Origin: Nitrosopumilus maritimus SCM1 | Lineage (GTDB): Archaea; Thermoproteota; Nitrososphaeria; Nitrososphaerales; Nitrosopumilaceae | NCBI RefSeq assembly: GCF_000018465.1 | Contig: NC_010085.1 | Coordinates: 1,530,001 to 1,562,000 of the forward strand | Length of the DNA: 32,000 nt | Direction of reading: 5' to 3' | In this document: piece by piece, positions 3,507 through 17,064 of the stretch | Position numbering within the stretch: the stretch's first letter is position 1 | How the letters are laid out: each line of letters begins with the position of its first letter | Notes under the pieces: model-generated | What the model saw: the letters and a program-made list of their open reading frames with translations, nothing else | Told to the model about the DNA's origin: nothing | The model's database searches: none | Position numbers and translations under genes: made by a program

Positions 3507-3542
3507 TAGTACAACAAACAAACAATTTTTCAAATAATTAGA
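3507..3542 (+). promoter_or_regulatory. Bipartite upstream element TAGTACAAC-N20-AATTAGA, 24 nt before ATG 3567
   Basis: Read directly: ttAGTACAAC aaacaaacaatttttcaaat AATTAGA ttagcataaattcgtgatagaaat ATG. Confidence 0.55.
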
Positions 3543-3566
3543 TTAGCATAAATTCGTGATAGAAAT

Positions 3567-4310
3567 ATGCTAAGCATGAGACAAAAATTAACTGCAAAAG
3601 TGAATAGTGAAACGATACAAAAAATTCTAGAATCAACAGATCAATTCAAAACAGTGTCAGAGATAAGTACAGAATGTAAAATTCCAAAAAGTACAACATA
3701 TCGTAAAATTAAATATCTTCAAGAAATAGGAATGCTAGAAGTAACAGGGTTTATTACAGATGGAGGACGAATTAACAAATACAAGTGTGGAAAATTGTTA
3801 AGATATGGAAAGTACAACCCCAAAGTAAAAAAAATTCTTAGTATTATTACATCAAATCCAGGTATATGCTATAATGAATTACAAGAAAGTTCAGGAATAC
3901 CAAATGGCACTCTGAGTCATTATGTATCTAGTATGGTAAAAGACTCAAAAATCATTGTTAAACGTACATCACGTCGTTCATGGTTTTTTCTTCCTAATGC
4001 AAAACCATCAGAAATTAACCTAATAATTAATCTACGTAAAGAGACAGGTAAGAACATTCTATCATTTCTATTATTGAATGGTTCTTCAACATTTTCAGAC
4101 ATACAAAAATCTACAATTAAAGCACCTGCTACAATTTCACTTACCATTACTCACTTAGTAGAACTTGGATTAGTTAGACGCATACCAGGAACTCGTCCAA
4201 AATACGAATTAACAGATAGAGAACTTACCTTTGAATGTATTAAAAAACTTGAGCCAGATACTTCAGATAGACTCAAAGAAAGATTTGCAGACACATTTTC
4301 ATATTTGTAA
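3567..4310 (+). CDS. Transcriptional regulator built from three tandem winged-helix (ArsR/TrmB-like) modules
   Basis: 247-aa ORF with ATG start. It contains three HTH-plus-wing segments: FKTVSEISTECKIPKSTTYRKIKYLQEIGMLEV, ICYNELQESSGIPNGTLSHYVSSMVKDSKIIVKR and STFSDIQKSTIKAPATISLTITHLVELGLVRR. Confidence 0.75.
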   Translation: MLSMRQKLTAKVNSETIQKILESTDQFKTVSEISTECKIPKSTTYRKIKYLQEIGMLEVTGFITDGGRINKYKCGKLLRYGKYNPKVKKILSIITSNPGICYNELQESSGIPNGTLSHYVSSMVKDSKIIVKRTSRRSWFFLPNAKPSEINLIINLRKETGKNILSFLLLNGSSTFSDIQKSTIKAPATISLTITHLVELGLVRRIPGTRPKYELTDRELTFECIKKLEPDTSDRLKERFADTFSYL

Positions 4311-4531: not shown

Positions 4532-4915
4532 CTAGTCTGATCTAAATATTCCAATTACAAAAAATGAAAGCATTGTAAATATCAATCCATGAGTAATCAA
4601 AGTGTCAACATCAGGCGTAGGTGGGGTATGAGATAATATGAACGAAACAATTGAGAATAATTCCACTGTAGTAATTGTGGCAAATGCGCATAATACCAAA
4701 AATAATCTCGTAGTTTTAAATTCAGAATAAGTAATCAATGCAACTATACTAAGGAACAATCCTAAGAGAGCAGAAGATATGTGAATAAATATGTGAACTT
4801 TATTTTCATCAGTAAAATTTTCACTGGTAAGTGGAATAAGAATTACTAATCCTATGAGCACTAAAATTCCAAGAAGTTTAAATTTTGATTTATTATCTAA
4901 TGTTGAAACTTGCAA
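4532..4915 (-). CDS. Small integral membrane protein (about 4 TM), unknown function
   Basis: 127-aa ORF with four hydrophobic segments. TTG start at 4915, with no in-frame ATG that keeps the first TM. It has its own upstream motif (see 4945..4981). Confidence 0.6.
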   Translation of the reverse strand: MQVSTLDNKSKFKLLGILVLIGLVILIPLTSENFTDENKVHIFIHISSALLGLFLSIVALITYSEFKTTRLFLVLCAFATITTVELFSIVSFILSHTPPTPDVDTLITHGLIFTMLSFFVIGIFRSD

Positions 4916-4988: not shown

Positions 4989-6710
4989 TCAAGTCTTAAT
5001 TTGAAAATTTGTAACATATTTTGTTTTAGATAGTACAACAATAGAAATTAAAATAATTGCAAGAATAATTGAAACACCTAATGGAAATTCAGGTGCAACG
5101 TTAACTGCAATCTCAACATATTCATCAGTACCACCAATATTTTCAATTCTGATTGTGACATCACCAGCCTCTTTTTCAACAAACACAAAGTTCTCAAAAG
5201 TTCCTCCACCAGTTGCAAGTCCAGATTTACGGTGAATTTCAGTACCATTCTTGATTAATACAAAATCATAGGCAATATCACCTGTTGTTAAGCCAGTATC
5301 TTTTTGATAAAAACTCATTATGAATTCAGATTCACCAAGACTCAAAATATTTGGAAACCATGTAAGATCAACCAAGTATTTACCATTAGTTGGATTCGAT
5401 GCAGAAACACTTTCAAGCACAATTGGAAATTTGGCATTTTCAGGCTCATTTATCGCTACTAAAAAGTTGACATTTGCCAATGAAAATCCTTCAATTTCAG
5501 ATATTCTGAATTTTATTGTTCCAACATTTTCAGGAGAAAAATTGTATTGAAAACTGTCTGTCTTGCCAGTATTTACGCTGCCAGAAACACGTTTGTTGAA
5601 TATAGTATTTTCATTTTGAATTAGTTCTATCCCATATTCTATATTTTTATTAGTTTTATCAGTGAAAATTTCATCTGTTTTTACAAAAAATGTAACATCT
5701 TCTCCGGGAGTAATTACTTCAGGTTCCCAAGACAGAAAAACTCTATATCGATAATCAGGTGTAACTGCTTCTAATGGAAATCCATCACCTTGACCAGGCC
5801 CTAACTCAAAATACATTTGTGAATCTGATTTTTGTATTGCATGTTCTTTGATTTGATTTAGATCTTCTCTGTTTAATACCATGTGTACTGTTCTTCCATC
5901 AAGAGAGTAATCATCAATTGTAACAACTTCAGCAGGTAATAAAATATCATTTACCTTTGCTTCATATTTTGTGTGAAGTAACTCTGAAAATTCTGGAGCA
6001 ATACGTACTTCTTGATGCACTACGCTTAGTTGCTCAAAGTCTTGATTCCAATCAAAGGGCATAGAAAATGATATCATATTTGAATCAAACTTAAAATTAT
6101 TGACCGAATCAAAATATGAAATTACATTTACGTTATGAGTATTTTCTTTTGAATCGGTTACTTGGAAAGTATTATGTTCAGCAAGACTAATTGCACCAAC
6201 TAACTCCATTCGTTTGTCAAGGAAATTAAAATCAGAGTCGACAGTAAGAATTTCTACTTTATATTCATAAAGACCTCCAGAATCAAAGATAGGTCCAGTC
6301 ATTATCACAGGTTCTGTTGCAGTTCTCATCCATGACTCAATTGCAGGGGATTTATCACCTATAACCTTGATTTCATTTGAATTATCATAGATTGTTTTAA
6401 TTGTTAAATTTCCCAAATCGTCATGAAACAGTTTTCTAAAAATTTGCTTACCGTCTTTTATCATCTCAAATGCATAAGTTACATGTTCTACAGCAGCTTC
6501 ACTTTTTGCATTTTTGAGGTTGATTGTAATGTATCGTTCAGGATCTTCTACATCAAAAACTGAGGGGCTAATATCAATAGATAATATCACATCACGTCCA
6601 TCTAGAGTAACGGGAGGATGAGTTTCTCCACCTAATCCATGTCCAAATGCAGTAGGAACAAAGCTAGAGGCAACAATTCCCATCATAAAAATCAACAAAA
6701 ATTTTTTCAT
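4989..6710 (-). CDS. Secreted surface protein with PEF(G)-CTERM-type sorting signal and two copies of a ~95-aa beta-sandwich-like domain
   Basis: 573-aa ORF with ATG start abutting the upstream stop (6711). The signal peptide ends ..PTAFG|HGLG. The C-terminus is NVAPEF + TM (PLGVSIILAIILISIVVL) + basic tail (SKTKY). Paralog of 13991..15379. Confidence 0.85.
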   Translation of the reverse strand: MKKFLLIFMMGIVASSFVPTAFGHGLGGETHPPVTLDGRDVILSIDISPSVFDVEDPERYITINLKNAKSEAAVEHVTYAFEMIKDGKQIFRKLFHDDLGNLTIKTIYDNSNEIKVIGDKSPAIESWMRTATEPVIMTGPIFDSGGLYEYKVEILTVDSDFNFLDKRMELVGAISLAEHNTFQVTDSKENTHNVNVISYFDSVNNFKFDSNMISFSMPFDWNQDFEQLSVVHQEVRIAPEFSELLHTKYEAKVNDILLPAEVVTIDDYSLDGRTVHMVLNREDLNQIKEHAIQKSDSQMYFELGPGQGDGFPLEAVTPDYRYRVFLSWEPEVITPGEDVTFFVKTDEIFTDKTNKNIEYGIELIQNENTIFNKRVSGSVNTGKTDSFQYNFSPENVGTIKFRISEIEGFSLANVNFLVAINEPENAKFPIVLESVSASNPTNGKYLVDLTWFPNILSLGESEFIMSFYQKDTGLTTGDIAYDFVLIKNGTEIHRKSGLATGGGTFENFVFVEKEAGDVTIRIENIGGTDEYVEIAVNVAPEFPLGVSIILAIILISIVVLSKTKYVTNFQIKT

Positions 6711-7364
6711 TTAAATTACCTCAAATGAGTTCAAAATTGAATTAAAGTCTGATTTTTCTAGTTCAGTTAGATTTTCAGGAGATTTGCCAGAGTATTGAAT
6801 CATGTAGAGTTTGTTGTCTTTTAGAAATAATAACTGTTCAGAAAAACTATCATCAGTATTTTTCTCACTATCAAAAGAAACTATTGCCCAATCATTTGAT
6901 TTTGATATGCGTTTAATTGGAATTTTAATCTCTTCTGAGTTCATCATATCAATTTGTTTAGATATGTAATTCTCCAGTTGAAAGTTTTTTGACTGTACAT
7001 CAAAAACAGAAACTAAAAAGCGTCTATCAGAGTCTTTATCTAGATAAATTCCATCAACATATCCTTTTGATTTTAAGTAAGCAAGTTCTTCTGTACGTAT
7101 AGTTTCTGAAGCTACTCGAATATCCCATTTATCATTTGGTTTTGATAATTGAAATGATAACTCACTATTATGATACATGTTATTTTCAAGAAATGATGGT
7201 TGTTTGGGATCAAATATGGTAATTTCTCCAAAACTAGACATTATTGTAATGCCAGAATCATCATAAGAAAATTGTGTAAAAAGCACCATCAATCCTGCAG
7301 TCGATACAATGACTGCAATGATTAAAGATAGTCTAACAAGTTTTACTTCTTTGGAAATATTCAA
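6711..7364 (-). CDS. N-terminally anchored extracytoplasmic protein, unknown function (weak PsbP/Mog1/DUF1795-like pattern)
   Basis: 217-aa ORF with TTG start 2 nt after the cupredoxin stop. TM helix is LSLIIAVIVSTAGLMVLF. The patterns ELSFQLSKPNDKW ... FNSILNSFEV are only weakly suggestive of a PsbP-like fold. Confidence 0.65.
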   Translation of the reverse strand: MNISKEVKLVRLSLIIAVIVSTAGLMVLFTQFSYDDSGITIMSSFGEITIFDPKQPSFLENNMYHNSELSFQLSKPNDKWDIRVASETIRTEELAYLKSKGYVDGIYLDKDSDRRFLVSVFDVQSKNFQLENYISKQIDMMNSEEIKIPIKRISKSNDWAIVSFDSEKNTDDSFSEQLLFLKDNKLYMIQYSGKSPENLTELEKSDFNSILNSFEVI

Positions 7365-7366
7365 TT

Positions 7367-8377
7367 TTACACAGGACTCGCTTTTCTTTCAGGATAATTA
7401 TAAGTAGGTTTTTTTCCTTTCATATATAGCACTATAACTGCCAACATAATTGCAGGAACTATAATCATTGCTACGGCAATCTCATAATAAAATTGCAAAG
7501 TATCTCGAGGTTGTACAATTTTTTCAGTAGTAGTTTTCTTTTCATAATTTTCATAAACCATAGCTGTAAAATCTCCTAATCTAGCAGTGGCATCAGGTCC
7601 AAGATTGATTTGTGTTTCTGCTACAGAACCATAAGGTTTGATATTTGATATTTTAACAATGATAGGGCCTGGTTCTTCAAATATCCATTGTCGGTAATCC
7701 CCACCCGCACCTGATACTGCGCCTTCATCTTTGTATAACACTTGATTATTTTGTAAAATAGCTATATCATATTCTAACTTTCTTAATGGCTGATCATATA
7801 TTGCATCATAAAAACGATAGATGAAGTTTGTTTTTTCATGGGTTTTAATGACTCGAGGTTCCCATGAAAAATTAATTTCAATTGAACCATCAGGAGTTAT
7901 AAGAAATGTAGGGAACTGTTCATACTTTTTTCCTGTAGCATCATGGGGATAATCAGGAATAAATGGTTTCACAAAAATAATTCCTTCCATCCAGGGATGA
8001 ATTACACAAAAGTAATTGTAATCTCCAGCTTTTTCAAATGTATATGACCAAGACTCGTCTGGCATAAATCTTAAACTATCAAACAGTCCATCAGGCTCAC
8101 CAAGATTCTTGGCATCCATCCAATCAAATCTTCCTGCACCACTGCCACTGGTAACTGTATGCCCTTCTCTATCATCATTTACCCATGTTACAGTATCCCC
8201 TTCAACAATAGATAATTCAGGTGGATCATACCAAACTTTAGCAGGGGTATTTAGTTCAGGATTAAATGCACCAAAAGGAATACTTACAACAAAATCCTCA
8301 GCAAAGGAATTTTGTATGTTTCCTGTAAATAGAAAACTTGTTGCAACAACAAACAAAATGAAAAATTTTTTTTGCAT
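7367..8377 (-). CDS. Membrane-anchored type-1 (blue) copper protein: amicyanin-like cupredoxin domain plus a ~95-aa domain
   Basis: 336-aa ORF with ATG start and signal peptide (FILFVVATSFLFTGNIQNSFA). Cu ligand pattern is EGHTVTSG ... YFCVIHPWMEG (His...Cys-x2-His-x2-Met). The second domain is FSWEPRVIKTHEKTNFIYRF...GAGGDY...ISNI. C-terminal TM is IAVAMIIVPAIMLAVIVLYM followed by KGKK. Confidence 0.85.
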   Translation of the reverse strand: MQKKFFILFVVATSFLFTGNIQNSFAEDFVVSIPFGAFNPELNTPAKVWYDPPELSIVEGDTVTWVNDDREGHTVTSGSGAGRFDWMDAKNLGEPDGLFDSLRFMPDESWSYTFEKAGDYNYFCVIHPWMEGIIFVKPFIPDYPHDATGKKYEQFPTFLITPDGSIEINFSWEPRVIKTHEKTNFIYRFYDAIYDQPLRKLEYDIAILQNNQVLYKDEGAVSGAGGDYRQWIFEEPGPIIVKISNIKPYGSVAETQINLGPDATARLGDFTAMVYENYEKKTTTEKIVQPRDTLQFYYEIAVAMIIVPAIMLAVIVLYMKGKKPTYNYPERKASPV

Positions 8378-8400
8378 ATGTTCAAAAACATGATTTTGAC

Positions 8401-8436
8401 TCTAATTAATTATCATATTGTTTTATCATTGTACTA
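8401..8436 (-). promoter_or_regulatory. Bipartite upstream element TAGTACAAT-N20-AATTAGA, 23 nt before ATG 8377
   Basis: Reverse complement of 8378..8437 reads cTAGTACAAT gataaaacaatatgataatt AATTAGA gtcaaaatcatgtttttgaacat ATG. Confidence 0.55.
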
Positions 8437-8787
8437 GTGTTTCTCAAATTCTTACACGTGCTTGTCTTACATTGTTTAATGTTTGAGAATTCAAAATATT
8501 CTGTAATGATGTGATTGCAATCGTTTGCACTGCATCAATATTAACCGCTTATGTATTTTGGCATGTTGCGCCTGCAAAAGTTGCTGAAACAGTAAAAATT
8601 ATTGAAATACAGAAGCAGGATGTATTGCAGAAACAAGAGACGGATTTGCAGTAAATATTGGACCATGTGACGCAGAAGAAGGTGATTACATCATGGCAAT
8701 GATAGATACAAAGGTAAAGGAAAGAGAAGCTGCCATGAACACTTAAAATCATAGGATTTTAGGCGTGAGTTTTATTCAAACATACAA

Positions 8788-8979
8788 TCAAGAGACTTTT
8801 TTTGTGCTATCATGTCTTGGTTGAGTTCTAAGTTTTACACCACAACATGGACACCGTAATGTAGGTATTTGAAAAAATCCCTCACAAACACTACAACGTT
8901 TGAATCCATTTAGATATTTATTTGATACAGCAACAGATGAAATGAATTCATTACAAACTCCTTTGCATCTATATGGCAC
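8788..8979 (-). CDS. Small cysteine-rich zinc-ribbon protein
   Basis: 63-aa ORF with GTG start. Cys pairs are CKGVC, CSVC and CPCC, followed by a basic tail. It is preceded by the bipartite promoter element at 8998..9035. Confidence 0.5.
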   Translation of the reverse strand: MPYRCKGVCNEFISSVAVSNKYLNGFKRCSVCEGFFQIPTLRCPCCGVKLRTQPRHDSTKKVS

Positions 8980-8997
8980 AAATATTTTTTTGTAGAG

Positions 8998-9035
8998 TCT
9001 AATTTAAGACAAGTGAATATTTTATTGTTGTACTA
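8998..9035 (-). promoter_or_regulatory. Bipartite upstream element TAGTACAAC-N22-AATTAGA, 18 nt before GTG 8979
   Basis: Reverse complement reads cTAGTACAAC aataaaatattcacttgtctta AATTAGA ctctacaaaaaaatattt GTG. Confidence 0.55.
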
Positions 9036-9069: not shown

Positions 9070-9273
9070 TCAAGTTGCCAACTCTGGCTTGATGTGCCAT
9101 ACTATTCCTAACATAATAAAGGGAATTGATATGATTCCAATTATCCCCAATATAGTATAGAAAGCAGATTCAGGGATATCAGGATTGTTAACAATCCAAG
9201 GTAATGGAAGTGTTACAATTACCCAAATTATTGCAAGTAAAATTATTGTTTTTGTTTTTCTATTAAAACTCAA
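9070..9273 (-). CDS. Small two-TM membrane protein
   Basis: 67-aa ORF with TTG start and two hydrophobic helices (IILLAIIWVIVTLPLPWIV, FYTILGIIGIISIPFIMLGIVW). Confidence 0.5.
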   Translation of the reverse strand: MSFNRKTKTIILLAIIWVIVTLPLPWIVNNPDIPESAFYTILGIIGIISIPFIMLGIVWHIKPELAT

Positions 9274-9349
9274 TTGGTAAATTTGTAATCAGCAGTTATT
9301 AATTTTATACGTTTTGTGTTAAAAAAATTTAAAGAATTAATTTTGTTTG

Positions 9350-9371
9350 TTTTATTGTTGTACTAGTTTTT
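9350..9371. repeat. 22-nt exact direct repeat, copy 2
   Basis: Identical to 9020..9041. It contains the TAGTACAAC 9-mer on the minus strand. Confidence 0.8.
9357..9365 (-). promoter_or_regulatory. TAGTACAAC copy 83 nt upstream of TTG 9273, without the AATTAGA half
   Basis: Exact 9-mer inside the 22-nt repeat copy 2. The downstream partner is AAATTAATTC rather than AATTAGA. Confidence 0.3.
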
Positions 9372-10423: not shown

Positions 10424-10578
10424 TTAAATCATAATAGTGGTCAAAATACCAATAAAGATAGAAAGACTCACATATCAATATCCATTCTTCAAATAATCCA
10501 ACCTAAAAACCAAAGCTCAATTTACAAAATTTGGTTTGCACGCCAATACTGTTTACATATTATTGGCTACGCATGAAA

Positions 10579-11460
10579 TTATTGTTTTTTGTACAAAAGA
10601 TAGATCCCAGTTAAGATTATCCCCATTGCAATTATTTGGACATGGCTGATTTGTTCTTGCAAAAATATTGCTGCAAAGATAAGACCAAAAACAGAAGATG
10701 TTGAAAAGATCATTATTGTTTTTACAGTTCCAATTCTTTTCAAACCCTGTAAAAATAGAAAGATAGATGCACCAAATCCTGCAATTCCTAAAAGTAGGAT
10801 GTTTGGTAGATGTTCTAATTCTATGTTGATAGGAATTTGCAGTAAAAATACCAATAGCAAAAGAATAGAACCTCCAATTAGAGATTTTAGTTGAACAATT
10901 CTTGCAATATCTAATCGTGTGCTTAGGATTTTGCTTAGATTGTTATCTAAAGCCCAAAACAAAGTGGCTCCAATAATGAGAAAATTTCCTTGATTCCTAA
11001 CATCAAATACAGAATAAGAAAATTCCATATCCGTAGTTACTAGTATCACTCCTGCAATCACTATTGCAACAGCAAGATAACCAATCGTAGTAATTTTTTC
11101 TCTAAACAACAAGATTGCAAGAAATACTGAGAAGATGATTTCCCCATTTAGCAATAATGCAGAATTTGAAGCACTTGAATTTTCCAATCCTGTGAAAAAT
11201 AACATTGGTCCAATTACTGCACCTGAGAAGGCAATAGTTAGCAATAACCATTTGTCTTTGAAAGAAATTGAAGAATTCTTTTTTGAAATTAATGGAGTTG
11301 CAACCAATGAAGCTAGAAAATAGACCAGAGATGCAAGCAATATTGGATGTATTGTAATTAGTGATGGTTTTGCAACAGCAGATACAGAACCAAACAATAA
11401 AGCAGCAAGTATTGCTGAGATATATCCAAACTTTGTTTGGTTAATTGATGCAAAATTCAA
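10579..11460 (-). CDS. EamA/DMT-superfamily transporter (about 10 TM)
   Basis: 293-aa ORF with two five-TM halves typical of duplicated EamA domains. Its TTG start overlaps the upstream TGA as TTGA. Confidence 0.85.
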   Translation of the reverse strand: MNFASINQTKFGYISAILAALLFGSVSAVAKPSLITIHPILLASLVYFLASLVATPLISKKNSSISFKDKWLLLTIAFSGAVIGPMLFFTGLENSSASNSALLLNGEIIFSVFLAILLFREKITTIGYLAVAIVIAGVILVTTDMEFSYSVFDVRNQGNFLIIGATLFWALDNNLSKILSTRLDIARIVQLKSLIGGSILLLLVFLLQIPINIELEHLPNILLLGIAGFGASIFLFLQGLKRIGTVKTIMIFSTSSVFGLIFAAIFLQEQISHVQIIAMGIILTGIYLLYKKQ

Positions 11461-11726
11461 GCAAACTCAATCTGAAAAATACCATGCAGTTGTATATGTA
11501 CTGACTTGAAGCTGCCATTACATTGAAAAAGGCGACGTTTTCCGTGTGTGTGAAGAATCCCTGTAGATATCACTAATTCATGGTCTTCAAGAAGGCGTAT
11601 TATTTTGTAAACAGTAGTAATTTGGATTTTAGTTTCAATAGAAATTTCTTTGACTGACTTTGGAGTTTTTTGAATGCTCAGTAATATTTCGTTACAATAA
11701 TCAAAATGATTTTCTAATTTCATCAT
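11457..11726 (-). CDS. Small winged-helix transcriptional regulator (ArsR-like)
   Basis: 89-aa ORF with ATG start. HTH segment is PKSVKEISIETKIQITTVYKIIRLLEDHELV. It is translationally coupled to the transporter gene. Confidence 0.7.
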   Translation of the reverse strand: MMKLENHFDYCNEILLSIQKTPKSVKEISIETKIQITTVYKIIRLLEDHELVISTGILHTHGKRRLFQCNGSFKSVHIQLHGIFQIEFA

Positions 11727-11746: not shown

Positions 11747-11783
11747 ACTAATGAATTGATGTTGTTGTTTGAGAGTTGTACTA
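11747..11783 (-). promoter_or_regulatory. Related element TAGTACAAC-N22-ATTAGT, 20 nt before ATG 11726
   Basis: Reverse complement reads tTAGTACAAC tctcaaacaacaacatcaattc ATTAGT gtcaaattccattttgtcta ATG. Confidence 0.4.
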
Positions 11784-12606: not shown

Positions 12607-13926
12607 TTAAAATCCAAGAGTTCTATACAAATTTCCTAAAGATGAACTACGTCTTCCTGAAGACAGTAATTTGAGTCGTTTGGATGCTTGTGCTGCAGCT
12701 TCTTTTTTCTTTTTTGATTCCACAACACTAGGCCACCAGTCAGGAAAACAAGAGTTACCAATTAGTTCCGGATCAACTGAAAGTTTGAACTGACTGCCAT
12801 ATCCATGTCTGCCCTTGGATTCTGTCTTTGATACTGCAATACCAGAGTTTACCAATTCAACTAGCATCTCAGAGAACCTCCGATAGGATATCTGCCTAGT
12901 ATCAGGCGATATAATCTTCTGATACTGTTTGAACAGATCAGATGTGCTGTGCCATCCTTCATCATTGATATATGTGAGTCTGGAGAGTGCAGCACATGCA
13001 AGCCTGAAATGATACGAGCCTCCAGAGATGATAGTAGTTATTTGATTTTTTTGCAGTTGGGAGACTGCCTTATCCACGTGTTTTTTTGAAATTTTTTCAT
13101 TTTCAGTTCCTGCAATCTCACCGCTTGTTCTTAGAAGATCAATTGCGCGTCTTGCATCACCGTGCTCTTCAGAACTGATATCAGCGCAATACTGCAAAAC
13201 ATCATCATCTATTTTTTTCAAAAATGATTTTTTTGCTCTATTACGAATTATCTTTAACACATCACTTTGAGAATAAGAATCAAAATAAATCTCAGAAGTG
13301 CCAATTCTCGATACTACTCTGTCATCTAAATTAAATTCAGATAATACCTTGTTTGATATAGTTACAATACACATGTGTCTTTTTAGTGTACGAAGCTTTT
13401 CAACTAGGACAACAATCTTGTAAACAAAGTCCGAAGGCTTGCCTCGTTTGTCATAGAATAACGTATCAAATTCATCAAGACATAATACAAAAATAGAATT
13501 ATCAGATTTTTCAAGTTTTTGTAAAATTAGTTTCTCAAATATTCCAAAAGCATAATTCATGCCCTGAGCGTTTTTGAGATTTTCATGGCCTAGTTCAGAC
13601 AATATCAGATTAATGCATCCAAAAACTGTTTTTGCTTTTCTTAAATTGACATAACAAAAATCAACATCCAAGTTTTGGCAAACAAACTGAACAATGGTAG
13701 ACTTGCCTGAACCACTCCTTCCATAAATTGATACAAGTGGAACAACTAGTCCCTTTTCATAAGATAGCAAGAACTTTACGAGTTTCTTTGATTCAGATTC
13801 CCTTCCAATAATGGAGTTTGTGACAGATAGATTGTCAAGAAATGACTTGTCTGAAAATATAGAATTCTGTGCACGTACATCACCTACAATCTTCTCTAGC
13901 GCTTTTTTGTCCACATAATGTTCCAC
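12607..13926 (-). CDS. cdc6: Orc1/Cdc6 AAA+ replication initiator
   Basis: 439 aa. Motifs are IIGRESE, Walker A GRSGSGKST, Walker B LCLDEFD, and a C-terminal winged-helix segment (SYRRFSEMLVELVNSGIAV). There is an extra ~50-aa basic/Ser-rich tail. GTG start at 13926, with a second in-frame GTG at 13914. Confidence 0.9.
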   Translation of the reverse strand: MEHYVDKKALEKIVGDVRAQNSIFSDKSFLDNLSVTNSIIGRESESKKLVKFLLSYEKGLVVPLVSIYGRSGSGKSTIVQFVCQNLDVDFCYVNLRKAKTVFGCINLILSELGHENLKNAQGMNYAFGIFEKLILQKLEKSDNSIFVLCLDEFDTLFYDKRGKPSDFVYKIVVLVEKLRTLKRHMCIVTISNKVLSEFNLDDRVVSRIGTSEIYFDSYSQSDVLKIIRNRAKKSFLKKIDDDVLQYCADISSEEHGDARRAIDLLRTSGEIAGTENEKISKKHVDKAVSQLQKNQITTIISGGSYHFRLACAALSRLTYINDEGWHSTSDLFKQYQKIISPDTRQISYRRFSEMLVELVNSGIAVSKTESKGRHGYGSQFKLSVDPELIGNSCFPDWWPSVVESKKKKEAAAQASKRLKLLSSGRRSSSLGNLYRTLGF

Positions 13927-13990: not shown

Positions 13991-15379
13991 TTACATCCTA
14001 ATGAGAGAAAAAGTCTCATATTTTCTGGCAATTACAATTATTCCAATTATAGAAACAACAAGTATCAAAATTGCAATAGTACCAAATTCAGGTGCAACCA
14101 TTATTCCAAACTCAGTTTCTTGTCCAGTATTTCGTATGTTTTCAAATTTAATTGTTGTAGGACCTGTTTGGTCTTCAGCAAATGTGAATTTTTCAAATTC
14201 ACCACCAACTGTTGCAGTTCCAGATACCCGGTATAACTCCGCTCCATTTTGAATGATTACAAAAGAATAATCAGAATTTCTTAAAGGTTCATTTGTCCAT
14301 CCGTCTCTAATAGTAAAGACAAAGTTTGTTTCAACTCCTGGTTCAAGATCTATAGGATCCCATGACAAGTTTACTTTGAAGTCTTCACTCTTTGTAAATG
14401 CCTCTAATGGAAATGATATTTTTTCATTTGTAGTTAAAGTGAAAACAATATTGTCTGGTAGTGGCTCATCAGATTTTTTCATCTCATTTTTTATGAATCT
14501 TAGATGGTCTTGCAATAAAACAAAGTGAACTATTCTCTCATCTTCTTCTGTGTAATCATCAATTGATACTGAAGCTTTGAACAACTCAATTCCATTTGCG
14601 TATCCTGAATAACTAGGACTCAAAAATTCAATGAAATGTTTTGGAAAATGTACTTCTTCGTGCACAACTGTAACGTGAGACATGCTGTTCTCACTCCAAT
14701 CAAAAGGCATCTCAAAAGTTACTTGTTTTGTTGCAGGATCATATTGGAAATTTTGGATTTTATCAAAATAAGATTTCATTCTAAATTCTACATCATTTCC
14801 TTCAGTATCTTCTTGAGGATGAGAAGTGGTTTCAACAAGTGTCAAATCTGCACGATATACACCTGAATCTTCTATGATGTTAGTTGGCTCATCAATGGTT
14901 CTAACTTCAATCTCAAAAGTAAACAATCCACCTGAATCAAAGACGGGGCCTGCAATCTCTATTGGAGATGATTCAGTTGCATGATATGCTCCCAAAAGTG
15001 AATCTTGCTCTCCATTAATTACAAAATTATCATATCCTTGTTGTGATAGTACAGTTATTGGTAAAACACCATTTTCTGTGAAAAAGTAGTTTCTGAAAAT
15101 CATCTCATTGCTATGGAACAATCCAATGAGAAATGTCACATTTTTTGCAGGCTCGTCTGTCTCTTTGTCAGTTGCAGTAATTGTGATTTGTTCTTGCTCA
15201 CTTTCAAAGTACATTGGCATCTCAACTGAAATTGAGATTTCTTTTCCAGCAACATCTACTGAAGATATAGTATCAATTCCCAATCCATGACCATAAACAC
15301 TACTAGCTGGAAACAGCAAACATGCGGCTAGAGCCAAAATTGAAAGTTTTGTAATTGACATCATATCAAATCTTATCAA
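13991..15379 (-). CDS. PEFG-CTERM surface protein, paralog of 4989..6710 (one copy of the ~95-aa domain)
   Basis: 462 aa. The longest ORF starts at TTG 15379; a likely ATG is at 15364. The signal peptide ends ..SSVYG|HGLG. Blocks shared with the paralog are GPVFDSGGLF, FEMPFDWS, VVHEEV and IDDYTEEDERIVHFVL. The C-terminus is MVAPEFG + TM + ARKY. Confidence 0.85.
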   Translation of the reverse strand: MIRFDMMSITKLSILALAACLLFPASSVYGHGLGIDTISSVDVAGKEISISVEMPMYFESEQEQITITATDKETDEPAKNVTFLIGLFHSNEMIFRNYFFTENGVLPITVLSQQGYDNFVINGEQDSLLGAYHATESSPIEIAGPVFDSGGLFTFEIEVRTIDEPTNIIEDSGVYRADLTLVETTSHPQEDTEGNDVEFRMKSYFDKIQNFQYDPATKQVTFEMPFDWSENSMSHVTVVHEEVHFPKHFIEFLSPSYSGYANGIELFKASVSIDDYTEEDERIVHFVLLQDHLRFIKNEMKKSDEPLPDNIVFTLTTNEKISFPLEAFTKSEDFKVNLSWDPIDLEPGVETNFVFTIRDGWTNEPLRNSDYSFVIIQNGAELYRVSGTATVGGEFEKFTFAEDQTGPTTIKFENIRNTGQETEFGIMVAPEFGTIAILILVVSIIGIIVIARKYETFSLIRM

Positions 15380-16134: not shown

Positions 16135-17064
16135 CTAGAATCCATTCTCATTTAGTGTCAAGCCCAATAATGCAGCTCGAGTGTACTTTCCATATTCGGC
16201 TTGCTCGAAATATTTTGCATTTTTTGTTTTGTCAACATCAGTTGAGATTTCATCAATTCTTGGAAGAGGATGCAAAATTATGCTATCATCTTTCATTTGT
16301 TTTAGCAAATCCAATCCGACAACATAGCTTCCCTTTACTTTGAGATATTCTTCCTCATCAGGGAATCTCTCTTTTTGGATTCTTGTAACATATAGAACAT
16401 CTAATTCATCAATGTGGTCTTCAATGTTAGTTGATTCAGTATAATCTAATTTTTGTTTGATTTCATAAGTAGAGTCTGATCTAATTCGTAATGATTCAGG
16501 GGAAATTAATCTAACATCAACATCATAGTTTCCTAGTCCATGCAAAAGTGAGTAAACAGTTCTTCCATATTTTAGGTCACCAACAATTCCAATCTTTAAT
16601 CTGTCAATCTTTTTCTTTTCTTTTTTAATTGTGTACAAGTCTTGAATTGCTTGTGTTGGATGCTCTTCTGTTCCACTACCAGCATTGATTACGGGTTTGT
16701 CTGAAACTTCAGCTGCAAATCTACTAGAACCATCAAGAGGGTGTCGTAAAACCATAGCATCAGAATAGATGGAGATGATTCTAACTGTGTCTGCAAGACT
16801 CTCTCCTTTTTGAGTTGAAGATGAGGTGATATCAGAGATTCCTAAAGAATTGCCTCCAATTGATGCCATCGCAGCTTCAAAACTTAGTCTAGTTCTAGTA
16901 CTTGGTTCATAAAACAAATATCCTAAAGTTTTGCCCTTACAAATCTCCCTTCTGTCAATTGGGTCAAGTGAGATGATTTTATCAGTTGATTGAAAGATTT
17001 GTTCAAGTTGATCCTTGCTAAAATCCTTAATTGAGATTATGTCTTTTTGGTAGAACTCGTTCAT
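16135..17064 (-). CDS. pyrB: Aspartate carbamoyltransferase catalytic subunit
   Basis: 309 aa with ATG start. Motifs STRTRLSFE, HPTQA and LHPLPR are present. Confidence 0.95.
   Translation of the reverse strand: MNEFYQKDIISIKDFSKDQLEQIFQSTDKIISLDPIDRREICKGKTLGYLFYEPSTRTRLSFEAAMASIGGNSLGISDITSSSTQKGESLADTVRIISIYSDAMVLRHPLDGSSRFAAEVSDKPVINAGSGTEEHPTQAIQDLYTIKKEKKKIDRLKIGIVGDLKYGRTVYSLLHGLGNYDVDVRLISPESLRIRSDSTYEIKQKLDYTESTNIEDHIDELDVLYVTRIQKERFPDEEEYLKVKGSYVVGLDLLKQMKDDSIILHPLPRIDEISTDVDKTKNAKYFEQAEYGKYTRAALLGLTLNENGF

Follow-up and report, generated by a model that had tools for sequence, protein, structure and literature searches.

In the archaeon Nitrosopumilus maritimus SCM1, about eight neighbouring genes appear to lie under an asymmetric element of 18 nucleotides (nt), placed just upstream of the TATA box, when copies beyond the start of the analysed stretch are counted. 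That stretch, called the window here, comprises 32,000 nt (RefSeq assembly GCF_000018465.1, contig NC_010085.1, positions 1,530,001 to 1,562,000 of the forward strand; 34.6% G+C), and positions are counted from its first base. We hold with moderate confidence that the element is a candidate binding site of a local factor with tandem winged helix-turn-helix (wHTH) modules, for which the product of Nmar_1674 is the best candidate, and that it is a promoter-proximal site most likely activating a small clustered regulon. The reading as a regulator site is supported by enrichment of the element, by its position, by its conservation at orthologous promoters, and by its linkage to one regulator family; we infer which protein binds, whether it activates or represses, and the signal, which may be copper availability.

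The consensus of the element is T[AG]G[TA]A[CGT]AA[CT]-NN-T[AC]AAACA, with TAGTACAAC as its 5' half. An earlier reading of the same DNA (the original prediction) had described this 9-mer as the first part of a bipartite motif, completed by AATTAGA and standing at a fixed distance from start codons. The exact 9-mer occurs five times in the window; dinucleotide-preserving shuffles give 0.12 and none of 100 reached five, in agreement with the predicted expectation of below one. With at most one mismatch there were 16 copies (5.9 expected). AATTAGA alone was not enriched (16 copies, 11.7 expected). The specific part runs beyond the 9-mer as TAGTACAAC-NN-T[AC]AAACA, and the good window copies align as TAGTA[CG]AA[CT]-NN-[TC/AA][AC]AAA[CT]A. 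The bipartite motif thus stands in its first half, which is specific and lies inside the 18-nt element; its AATTAGA half is not specific, so that 'site plus TATA box' is the better description. Scores are from a 20-nt position weight matrix (PWM), built from clear instances and applied to the 100 nt upstream of every plausible first gene. Six window promoters carry the element, and the window start truncates a seventh copy; all seven lie within the first 12 kb. These copies, and an exact 9-mer that is not a member, are as follows (aa, amino acids; TM, transmembrane segment):

1-6, + strand: element tail AAAACA, the seventh element, truncated by the window start
3507..3524, + strand: element TAGTACAAC-AAACAAACA, regulator gene; 25.3 bits
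4964..4981, - strand: element TAGTAGAAC-CATAAAACA, 127-aa membrane-protein gene; 24.5 bits; 66 nt before the TTG at 4915
8419..8436, - strand: element TAGTACAAT-GATAAAACA, cupredoxin operon; 26.6 bits; 59 nt before the ATG
9018..9035, - strand: element TAGTACAAC-AATAAAATA, Cys-rich gene; 23.1 bits; 56 nt before the GTG at 8979
9348..9365, - strand: element TAGTACAAC-AATAAAACA, 67-aa two-TM gene; 26.7 bits; an atypical 92 nt to the TTG
11766..11783, - strand: element TAGTACAAC-TCTCAAACA, 89-aa wHTH gene; 27.7 bits; 57 nt before the ATG
5031..5039, + strand: exact 9-mer, non-member, inside the coding sequence 4989-6710 (-), without the second half, below 12 bits

The 5' part missing from the seventh element is supplied by contig L268 (L-numbers label comparison contigs or loci), which is identical to the window over 12.2 kb and reads ACTAGTACAATGATAAAACA-ttcttac-CAATTATAACC-N20-GTG; the complete element, ACTAGTACAATGATAAAACA, scores 26.6 bits, with its first T 56 nt ahead of the GTG that starts a beta-propeller gene. 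The 9-mer at 5031 is probably a chance copy. On re-reading, all strings and coordinates given for the bipartite cases were correct: TAGTACAAC-N20-AATTAGA-N24-ATG(3567) from 3507 (+), TAGTACAAT-N20-AATTAGA-N23-ATG(8377) from 8436 (-), and TAGTACAAC-N22-AATTAGA-N18-GTG(8979) from 9035 (-), as well as the weaker members TAGTACAAC-N22-ATTAGT-N20-ATG(11726) from 11783 (-) and TAGTAGAAC-N21-AATTAGT-N29-TTG(4915) from 4981 (-). The copy at 9365 (-), belonging to gene 9273, has only the first half of that motif, as had been claimed.

AATTAGA itself appears to be the 3' part of an ordinary TATA-like box (AATTAATTAG, TTAAATTAGA), because the distances of the boxes from the start codon match those in other window promoters, where TATA-like boxes such as AATTTAGAT or TTAAAATC stand about 24-30 nt before the start codon, and those in the thaumarchaeal amo genes (amoA, amoC), where TATA stands 23-24 nt before it (PMC3379541). 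The boxes and box regions located in the window are:

14-24, + strand: TATA-like CAATTATAACC, propeller gene; the tail of the seventh element and the box region lie 22 nt before the GTG at 45
3536..3552, + strand: A/T-rich promoter region of the regulator gene, with AATTAGA at 3536-3542 and CATAAATT at 3545-3552
8400..8411, - strand: TATA-like AATTAATTAGAG, cupredoxin operon; contains AATTAGA at 8401-8407 and ends 22-23 nt before the ATG at 8377
8998..9007, - strand: TATA-like TTAAATTAGA, Cys-rich gene; read from the sequence

In relatives the box takes other forms (AATTATAA, ATTATTAG), and ATTAATTA matches the cupredoxin-operon box in 14 orthologous promoters. A motif promoter is laid out as the 18-nt element, a spacer of 7-10 nt, a TATA-like box of about 10 nt, a further 20-26 nt, and the start codon, which typically falls 51-63 nt after the first base of the element. 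This fits the proposal that AATTAGA occupies the TATA-box place of leaderless or short-leader mRNAs. The element itself lies upstream of the TFB recognition element (BRE) and TATA, without overlap. A BRE/TATA core element would be expected at -23 to -37 of most promoters; AATTAGA stands at that position, and the 18-nt element neither stands there nor marks most promoters. The TATA assignment and the leaderless or near-leaderless state of the mRNAs are read from this geometry and from PMC3379541; if they hold, the element would occupy about -56 to -39. An arrangement in which TAAAACA of the 18-mer is the TATA box and AATTAGA the transcription start was rejected, given the separate TATA-like box 22-24 nt before ATG or GTG in all lineages. 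Elsewhere in the window, three copies of AATTAGA occur on the minus strand at 16400-16486, within 87 bp and 45 and 35 bp apart, inside an open reading frame (ORF; 16135-17064); they are probably a repeated coding segment.

The predicted fixed distance to the start codon applies to most motif promoters; the N24-ATG spacing given for the regulator gene is doubtful, since RefSeq and L121 (SCGC AAA799-D11, the closest relative compared) use the ATG at 3576. The regulator Nmar_1674 is ABX13570.1 in GenBank (247 aa, start at 3567) and WP_187146540.1 in RefSeq (244 aa, start three codons later, at 3576). Homologue alignment and the conserved CATAAATT box favour 3576 as the likely start. Within the A/T-rich region of this promoter L121 preserves only CATAAATT, which stands 23 nt before the ATG at 3576 and probably serves as the actual TATA box of the gene; in both SCM1 and L121 it lies about 10 bp further from the element than usual. 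The element of this gene is kept in L121 at an equal distance, 69 nt from the shared start MRQK/MAQK.

Two outcomes had been named in advance as fatal to a specific motif, namely a generic promoter consensus and a lack of positional bias relative to start codons. Neither was observed in the window and the loci sampled. PWM scores of the window promoters are bimodal, with six at 23-28 bits (genes starting at 3567, 4915, 8377, 8979, 9273, and 11726) and fourteen at 2 bits or below, the latter including all promoters between 12 and 32 kb; the element is therefore not a generic promoter sequence, and that reading is refuted. It was found at 6 of 20 window promoters and at 38 of 240 promoter-like regions of the window and sampled loci. 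Within those loci the bias is marked: the first T lies 51-63 nt from the start codon in 30 of the 38 motif promoters (mode 56), as compared with an ORF start at that distance in 3 of 121 unrelated metagenomic matches to TAGTACAAYNNTAAAACA among the matches listed (Fisher p = 1e-21). An unbiased count of 7-mers in the 240 upstream regions ranked TAGTACA, GTACAAC, and AGTACAA as the top three (p = 1e-14 to 1e-11), ahead of TATA-like words. Pattern scans of viral contigs (bipartite pattern) and metagenomes (16-base pattern) returned, among the matches listed, almost only chance hits; L208 alone was thaumarchaeal.

Conservation was followed in 21 loci from Nitrosopumilus, Nitrosarchaeum, and Nitrosotenuis, found by a regulator-profile scan with one genome per species, and in Nitrosotalea contigs fetched separately via a more distant regulator homologue. 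A strict pattern with 16 specified positions matched 26 times in the 284.5 kb of the window and 21 loci (0.13 expected), and 25 of the 26 matches are followed, 44-92 nt further on along the same strand, by the start of an ORF of 45 aa or more. The element stands at orthologous promoters in Nitrosopumilus, Nitrosarchaeum, and Nitrosotalea; Nitrosotenuis has a diverged form of it. Families recurring downstream of it across genera are the cupredoxin operon, the Vgb-lyase-like propeller, small Cys-rich proteins of 57-81 aa, the 127-aa membrane protein, an 88-89-aa wHTH protein, and a DsbA-like protein; a 91-96-aa protein (YLTWYVSPDEVTE...CIAE...NIGPCD) is also recurrent. When 15 cupredoxin promoters were aligned on the motif, conservation was confined to the 18 nt, the short spacer, and the ATTAATTA box, with divergent flanks. 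Propeller orthologues in L123, L126, L127, L130, L143, and L145 have an arrangement identical to that of the SCM1 promoter, and the GTG start in relatives follows AATTATAA by 22 nt. Cys-rich orthologues lie downstream of the element in L121, L131, L133, L135, L136, and L137, and small wHTH orthologues with the element occur in L138 (four tandem copies) and L139. The element precedes the regulator gene itself in SCM1 and L121. Two copies are less well kept in L121: the orthologue of the membrane-protein gene has an element of 15.6 bits, and at the 67-aa two-TM gene, the spacing of which is not conserved, the element lies 76 nt from the start.

Nitrosotalea retains the synteny of DtxR, propeller, regulator, membrane protein, and cupredoxin genes, and there the cupredoxin gene has TGGTAGAAC-TCTAAAACA, then ATTAATTAAT, upstream. 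In Nitrosotenuis L122, the 17-mer TGGTACAATCAGCTAAC occurs four times in 18 kb (7231, 10064, 14597, and 16049). Its first half is that of the element, its second half differs, and its distance to ORF starts varies more; the repeat may be a form of the site particular to this lineage. In L138 (a Nitrosopumilus metagenome-assembled genome), positions 10498-10589 hold four head-to-tail copies of the 23-bp unit ATTAGTATAACCTTCAAACAAAA, each with the element, before the 88-aa single-wHTH gene, a natural multimerised site. At the cupredoxin promoters of L125, L126, L127, L143, L145, and L271, a conserved TTTTAAATT(A/C)TT stands immediately 5' of the element, about 10-25 nt upstream, in the position of a TATA box for the divergently transcribed membrane-protein gene, and the element thus lies between two back-to-back TATA boxes; one element may serve both directions in several relatives.

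The regulator encoded within the cluster is linked to the element in several ways. Pfam models HTH_24, TrmB, and HTH_IclR match three separate regions of Nmar_1674; the TrmB-type wHTH (PF01978) scores 43.2 bits against a cutoff of 25.6 at residues 165-218, and the other two models score equally or higher on the other modules. In the AlphaFold model (mean pLDDT 82.8), three H-H-H-E-E modules are joined by a C-terminal helix pair bearing an invariant RF(A/S)D(T/S)FSY signature (Nmar_1674 ends KERFADTFSYL). At one syntenic position the regulator takes either a three-module (241-247 aa) or a two-module form (168-172 aa), and the motif differs between the corresponding loci, being T[AG]G[TA]ACAA[CT]-[GA][GA]TAAAACA in the former (n = 31) and T[AG]GTA[GT]AAC-[TC]NTCAAACA in the latter (n = 25); motif variants that track regulator forms would fit co-evolution of factor and site. 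The element was present at the cupredoxin promoter in 15 of 16 distinct loci with the regulator and in neither of two without it (p = 0.02). In the latter two the cupredoxin homologue stands in a different genomic context; L270 had no match of 11 bits or more in 13.9 kb, and L144 had a single match (12.1 bits), on the strand opposite to the gene and some 7 kb away from it. The 127-aa membrane protein always adjoins the regulator (L131-L138, L142, L143, L145, L146, L271), and we take it as a candidate partner or sensor of the regulator. In loci fetched via the cupredoxin, a choice independent of the regulator (L142, L143, L145, L271), the regulator and the small membrane protein lie immediately upstream of the operon, the cupredoxin / PsbP-like / PEFG-CTERM order of which is repeated. 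The claim that the 9-mer is a regulator site rather than a generic promoter sequence is thus supported by the bimodal scores, by conservation in four genera, and by its co-occurrence and co-variation with the wHTH regulator.

The proposed mechanism is as follows. Nmar_1674, or in other lineages its two-module orthologue, would bind the site directly upstream of BRE/TATA, about -56 to -39 relative to the start codon in genes with no leader or a short one, and the bound factor would most likely aid recruitment of TBP and TFB, leading to activation. Activation is favoured because the element lies upstream of BRE, as do the sites of TrmBL1/Tgr, Ptr2, and TFB-RF1; in characterised archaeal systems, sites in that position are associated with activation, and those overlapping or downstream of TATA with repression (PMC4158304). 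The information-rich blocks of the element, GTAC around position 4 and AAAC around positions 14-15, have centres about 10-11 bp, or one helical turn, apart and form no palindrome. Two adjacent wHTH modules of one polypeptide could read successive major grooves, and an asymmetric, oriented site would be expected from such a single chain rather than from a symmetric dimer. The regulon would be largely extracytoplasmic, comprising the cupredoxin/PsbP-like/PEFG-CTERM operon, the Vgb-lyase-like propeller, small Cys-rich proteins, the 91-aa protein, and the partner membrane protein, joined in SCM1 by the regulator gene and the second small wHTH gene.

Several observations weigh against this interpretation. 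The regulator lacks conserved Cys or His and is not an obvious direct metal sensor. Its co-variation with the motif could be explained by shared ancestry alone, and the co-occurrence of the two is partly built in, as the relatives were all sampled around the cluster; the negative set consists of two loci (L144, L270). L121 is an exception on the positive side, having the regulator but missing the element at a rearranged cupredoxin promoter. The geometry of autoregulation is found only in SCM1 and L121; the suggestion that the triple-wHTH regulator controls itself is therefore supported for these two, where the element precedes the regulator gene, and not for other relatives. The resemblance to a copper-limitation motif of Nitrososphaera viennensis, taken up below, is confined to about 9-11 nt around a palindromic GTAC core; the other half of that motif is GC-rich (KSCSGAA) as opposed to T[AC]AAACA in the element, and its published orientation to the gene is mostly opposite.

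At the rearranged L121 promoter (7460-7640), the cupredoxin TATA box AATTAATTAGAG is kept and the element is replaced by unrelated sequence, in an intergenic region about 1.2 kb longer than that of SCM1. This suggests that an insertion or rearrangement uncoupled the operon from the element.

The genes of the cluster and its surroundings are listed below.

45-1619, + strand: Vgb-lyase-like beta-propeller gene, GTG start at 45
within the first 12 kb of the window: gene for a 172-aa protein
within the first 12 kb of the window: HtrA-type protease gene
3567-4310, + strand: regulator Nmar_1674, three tandem wHTH modules, likely true start 3576
4532-4915, - strand: 127-aa multi-pass membrane protein, TTG start at 4915
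4989-8377, - strand: cupredoxin operon, three genes
7367-8377, - strand: cupredoxin (Pfam Copper-bind), ATG at 8377
6711-7364, - strand: PsbP-like protein (Pfam PsbP_2)
4989-6710, - strand: 573-aa PEFG-CTERM surface protein (NCBIfam PEFG-CTERM)
8788-8979, - strand: 63-aa Cys-rich protein, GTG start, four Cys pairs, zinc-ribbon-like
9070-9273, - strand: 67-aa two-TM protein, TTG start
within the first 12 kb of the window: gene for a secreted 223-aa protein
10579-11460: EamA transporter gene
11457-11726, - strand: 89-aa single-wHTH protein, 4-nt overlap with the EamA transporter gene

By gene counting from Nmar_1674, the 67-aa two-TM protein may be Nmar_1679, an uncharacterised membrane protein (arCOG08818) that is confined to thaumarchaea and occurs in 29 of 30 of their genomes (PMC6393860). 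The cluster extends beyond the window start in SCM1 (L268 1-2755). An eighth element, TAGTGCAAC-CGTAAAACA, at L268 1349 (-), lies 1.4 kb upstream of the seventh and adjoins a second Cys-rich, zinc-ribbon-like paralogue (about 1400-1620, -; MVCKNICIDYKAK...), which is preceded by a weak element copy, and a DsbA-like gene (1757-2479); a 73-aa ORF is also found in this part. Positions 8479-8746 (+) of the window hold a broken copy, with at least two frameshifts, of the 91-aa 'YLTWYVAPDEV...CIAE...NIGPCD' family, in fragments reading MFENSKYSVMM and a stop, then ..VIAIVCTASILTAYVFWHVAPAKVAETVKII, then NTEAGCIAETRDGFAVNIGPCDAEEGDY...; the family is intact and preceded by the motif in most relatives, and the SCM1 copy has no element of its own. 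The PEFG-CTERM protein (4989-6710, -), which bears an archaeosortase-type sorting signal, and a 462-aa protein (13991-15379, -) are paralogous secreted proteins with a common N-terminal HGLG motif; of the two, only the former belongs to a motif-controlled operon. An Orc1/Cdc6-type AAA+ gene (12607-13926, -) adjoins the cluster, and no origin-type repeat clusters were noticed in a passing look around it. Origin-recognition boxes were rejected as an identity for the element, whose copies are dispersed across 12 kb and each keep a set distance to a start codon.

The most serious alternative retains the same site and factor and differs in sign: the factor would be a repressor, bound under replete conditions, that blocks or distorts TBP/TFB assembly on BRE/TATA. 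We consider this unlikely. The element ends only 7-10 bp from the TATA-like box, a distance over which a multi-domain protein could reach BRE; in several relatives the TATA of the divergent membrane-protein gene follows it directly, a layout in which occlusion is conceivable; and the majority of characterised archaeal factors repress (PMC4158304). Known archaeal repressors, however, usually overlap TATA/BRE or the start site, whereas sites upstream of BRE are associated with activation (PMC4158304), and the related N. viennensis motif marks induced genes, although derepression would also fit (PMC7785015).

It is less probable still that another local protein reads the element, either the 89-aa single-wHTH protein (11457-11726) or the Cys-rich zinc-ribbon-like protein (8788-8979), and that the tandem-wHTH protein does something else. 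The element precedes both candidate genes, a usual trait of genes for autoregulated factors; many genomes keep the Cys-rich protein in the cluster; and the tandem copies of L138 stand before the small wHTH gene. The 89-aa wHTH gene, however, was found in three loci only (the window, L138, and L139), whereas essentially all loci with the motif also contain the tandem-wHTH gene, each of whose two forms goes with one of the two motif variants; moreover, a single-wHTH protein acting as a homodimer should favour a palindrome, which the asymmetric site is not.

The original prediction had also offered a promoter class read by one of the thaumarchaeal TFB/TBP paralogues, which would make the element an extended core-promoter element. 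Strict orientation and a narrow register with TATA and the start codon are more typical of a core element than of a freely placed operator. Even so, of the two options then offered, the regulator site is the one sustained, and the paralogue class appears very improbable: with its end 7-10 bp upstream of TATA, the element is outside the usual footprint of BRE, no TFB or TBP gene is linked to it in the loci examined (the sole TFIIB-like gene is in L270, a motif-free locus), and the regulator promoter tolerates about 10 bp of extra spacing. Finally, the low G+C of the genome and the lack of enrichment of AATTAGA alone might have pointed to a chance AT-rich product, a generic promoter consensus, or the remnant of a short mobile repeat, but this is refuted by the counts of the 9-mer (5 versus 0.12) and the strict pattern (26 versus 0.13), by conservation limited to the 18 nt and the TATA box between diverging flanks, and by the presence of the element at orthologous promoters in distinct genera and its absence from 14 of 20 window promoters.

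As a candidate activator site for Nmar_1674, the element resembles known archaeal upstream activating sequences (UAS), namely the TGM of TrmBL1/Tgr, the Ptr2 UAS of Methanocaldococcus, and the TFB-RF1 site of Pyrococcus, in being a short site directly upstream of BRE/TATA at co-regulated promoters, with a winged-helix regulator encoded nearby and partly autoregulated (PMC4158304). It marks a subset of promoters (6 of 20 and 38 of 240) and is conserved at orthologous ones, here in four genera. The TrmBL1, Ptr2, and TFB-RF1 sites are, however, palindromic or paired and bound by dimers, whereas the SCM1 element is asymmetric, strictly oriented, and held in a narrow register with TATA, and its candidate factor is a single chain of two or three wHTH modules without a TrmB effector domain. 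The AATTAGA half, at the TATA position, recalls the core promoters of amoA and amoC (Bartossek et al. 2012, PMC3379541); the 18-nt element differs from these in lying upstream of BRE/TATA and at only a minority of promoters.

Nmar_1674 shares the TrmB-type wHTH (PF01978) with the TrmB family, but a domain search found no sugar-binding effector domain in it, only three wHTH modules and a short helical tail, and its presumed element is asymmetric, unlike the palindromic sites of TrmB dimers. It also differs from ArsR/SmtB proteins, which have conserved Cys/His/Asp/Glu metal-binding sites: in an alignment of 18 family members, no column that is invariant or 90% conserved holds a Cys or His, and ArsR-type models scored below their cutoffs. 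From the missing effector domain and the missing Cys/His, Nmar_1674 appears to be neither a classical TrmB protein nor an obvious ArsR-type metal sensor. A sequence search against solved structures found no close relative, only generic wHTH and tandem-wHTH matches. The best Foldseek matches of the model were to SelB WH1-4, TFIIIC tauB, Pol III RPC34/RPC62, and ScpB, all chains of consecutive winged helices, but with TM-scores of only 0.2-0.33 and 10-15% identity, and none is a prokaryotic-type promoter-specific regulator; judged from the predicted structure, the likeness would be architectural and is not evidence of homology.

The suggested connection with copper gains indirect support from N. 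viennensis, in which 5'-TTCSGSMTTTGWACYANT-3' occurs twelve times at -35 to -70 of genes induced under copper limitation (Reyes et al. 2020, PMC7785015). The genes with this motif encode CopC/D, multicopper oxidases, DsbD, a plastocyanin-like protein, exported unknowns, and regulators (PMC7785015). Taking the published consensus only, its reverse complement ANTRGTWCAAA (containing TRGTWCAA) agrees with (A/G)(T/C)-T-R-G-T-A-C-A-A of the element at 10 of 11 positions. Both cases concern an ammonia-oxidising archaeon with clustered genes for exported, cupredoxin-type, and thiol-disulfide proteins and regulators nearby. The cupredoxins, DsbA, and surface proteins, with the neighbours found near the cluster in relatives, would fit a metal or redox theme; those neighbours include a multicopper oxidase, a cation-efflux protein, DtxR, Nramp, and a YHS-domain protein. 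A profile search found no member of the tandem-wHTH family outside Nitrosopumilales, Nitrososphaera included, among the matches listed. The copper link and homology with the N. viennensis motif may be regarded as a lead, not a result. Tentatively, and with more doubt than conviction, a bolder proposal may be made: that a single-chain tandem-wHTH monomer binds the oriented 18-bp site, one module per half-site, with the TATA register fixed; that it is the master switch of a copper response common to ammonia-oxidising archaea, with TRGTACAA as the Nitrososphaera copper-limitation element; and that the 127-aa membrane protein is the sensor.

The literature searched, including by locus tags Nmar_1670-1683, yielded no description of the element, of Nmar_1674, or of its neighbours, except for the listing of Nmar_1679 in PMC6393860; the cluster genes are not mentioned in the main text of a 2026 PNAS proteomics paper, and no experimentally defined factor-site pair in ammonia-oxidising archaea was found in the same literature. 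Promoter-proximal factor sites with their regulons are already known as a kind of archaeal system; what is unusual is the tandem-wHTH candidate factor and the oriented site. Together, the conserved element and the adjacent multi-winged-helix regulator may represent a previously undescribed putative regulon, perhaps one that responds to copper.

Ammonia-oxidising archaea carry out a large share of marine nitrification and rely heavily on copper proteins, and to our knowledge their gene regulation is almost unexplored. The present analysis supplies a precise conserved cis-element, a short target list (Nmar_1671-1683 and orthologues), a candidate factor in Nmar_1674, and a candidate membrane partner. 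The target genes could mark the underlying stress in ocean metatranscriptomes.

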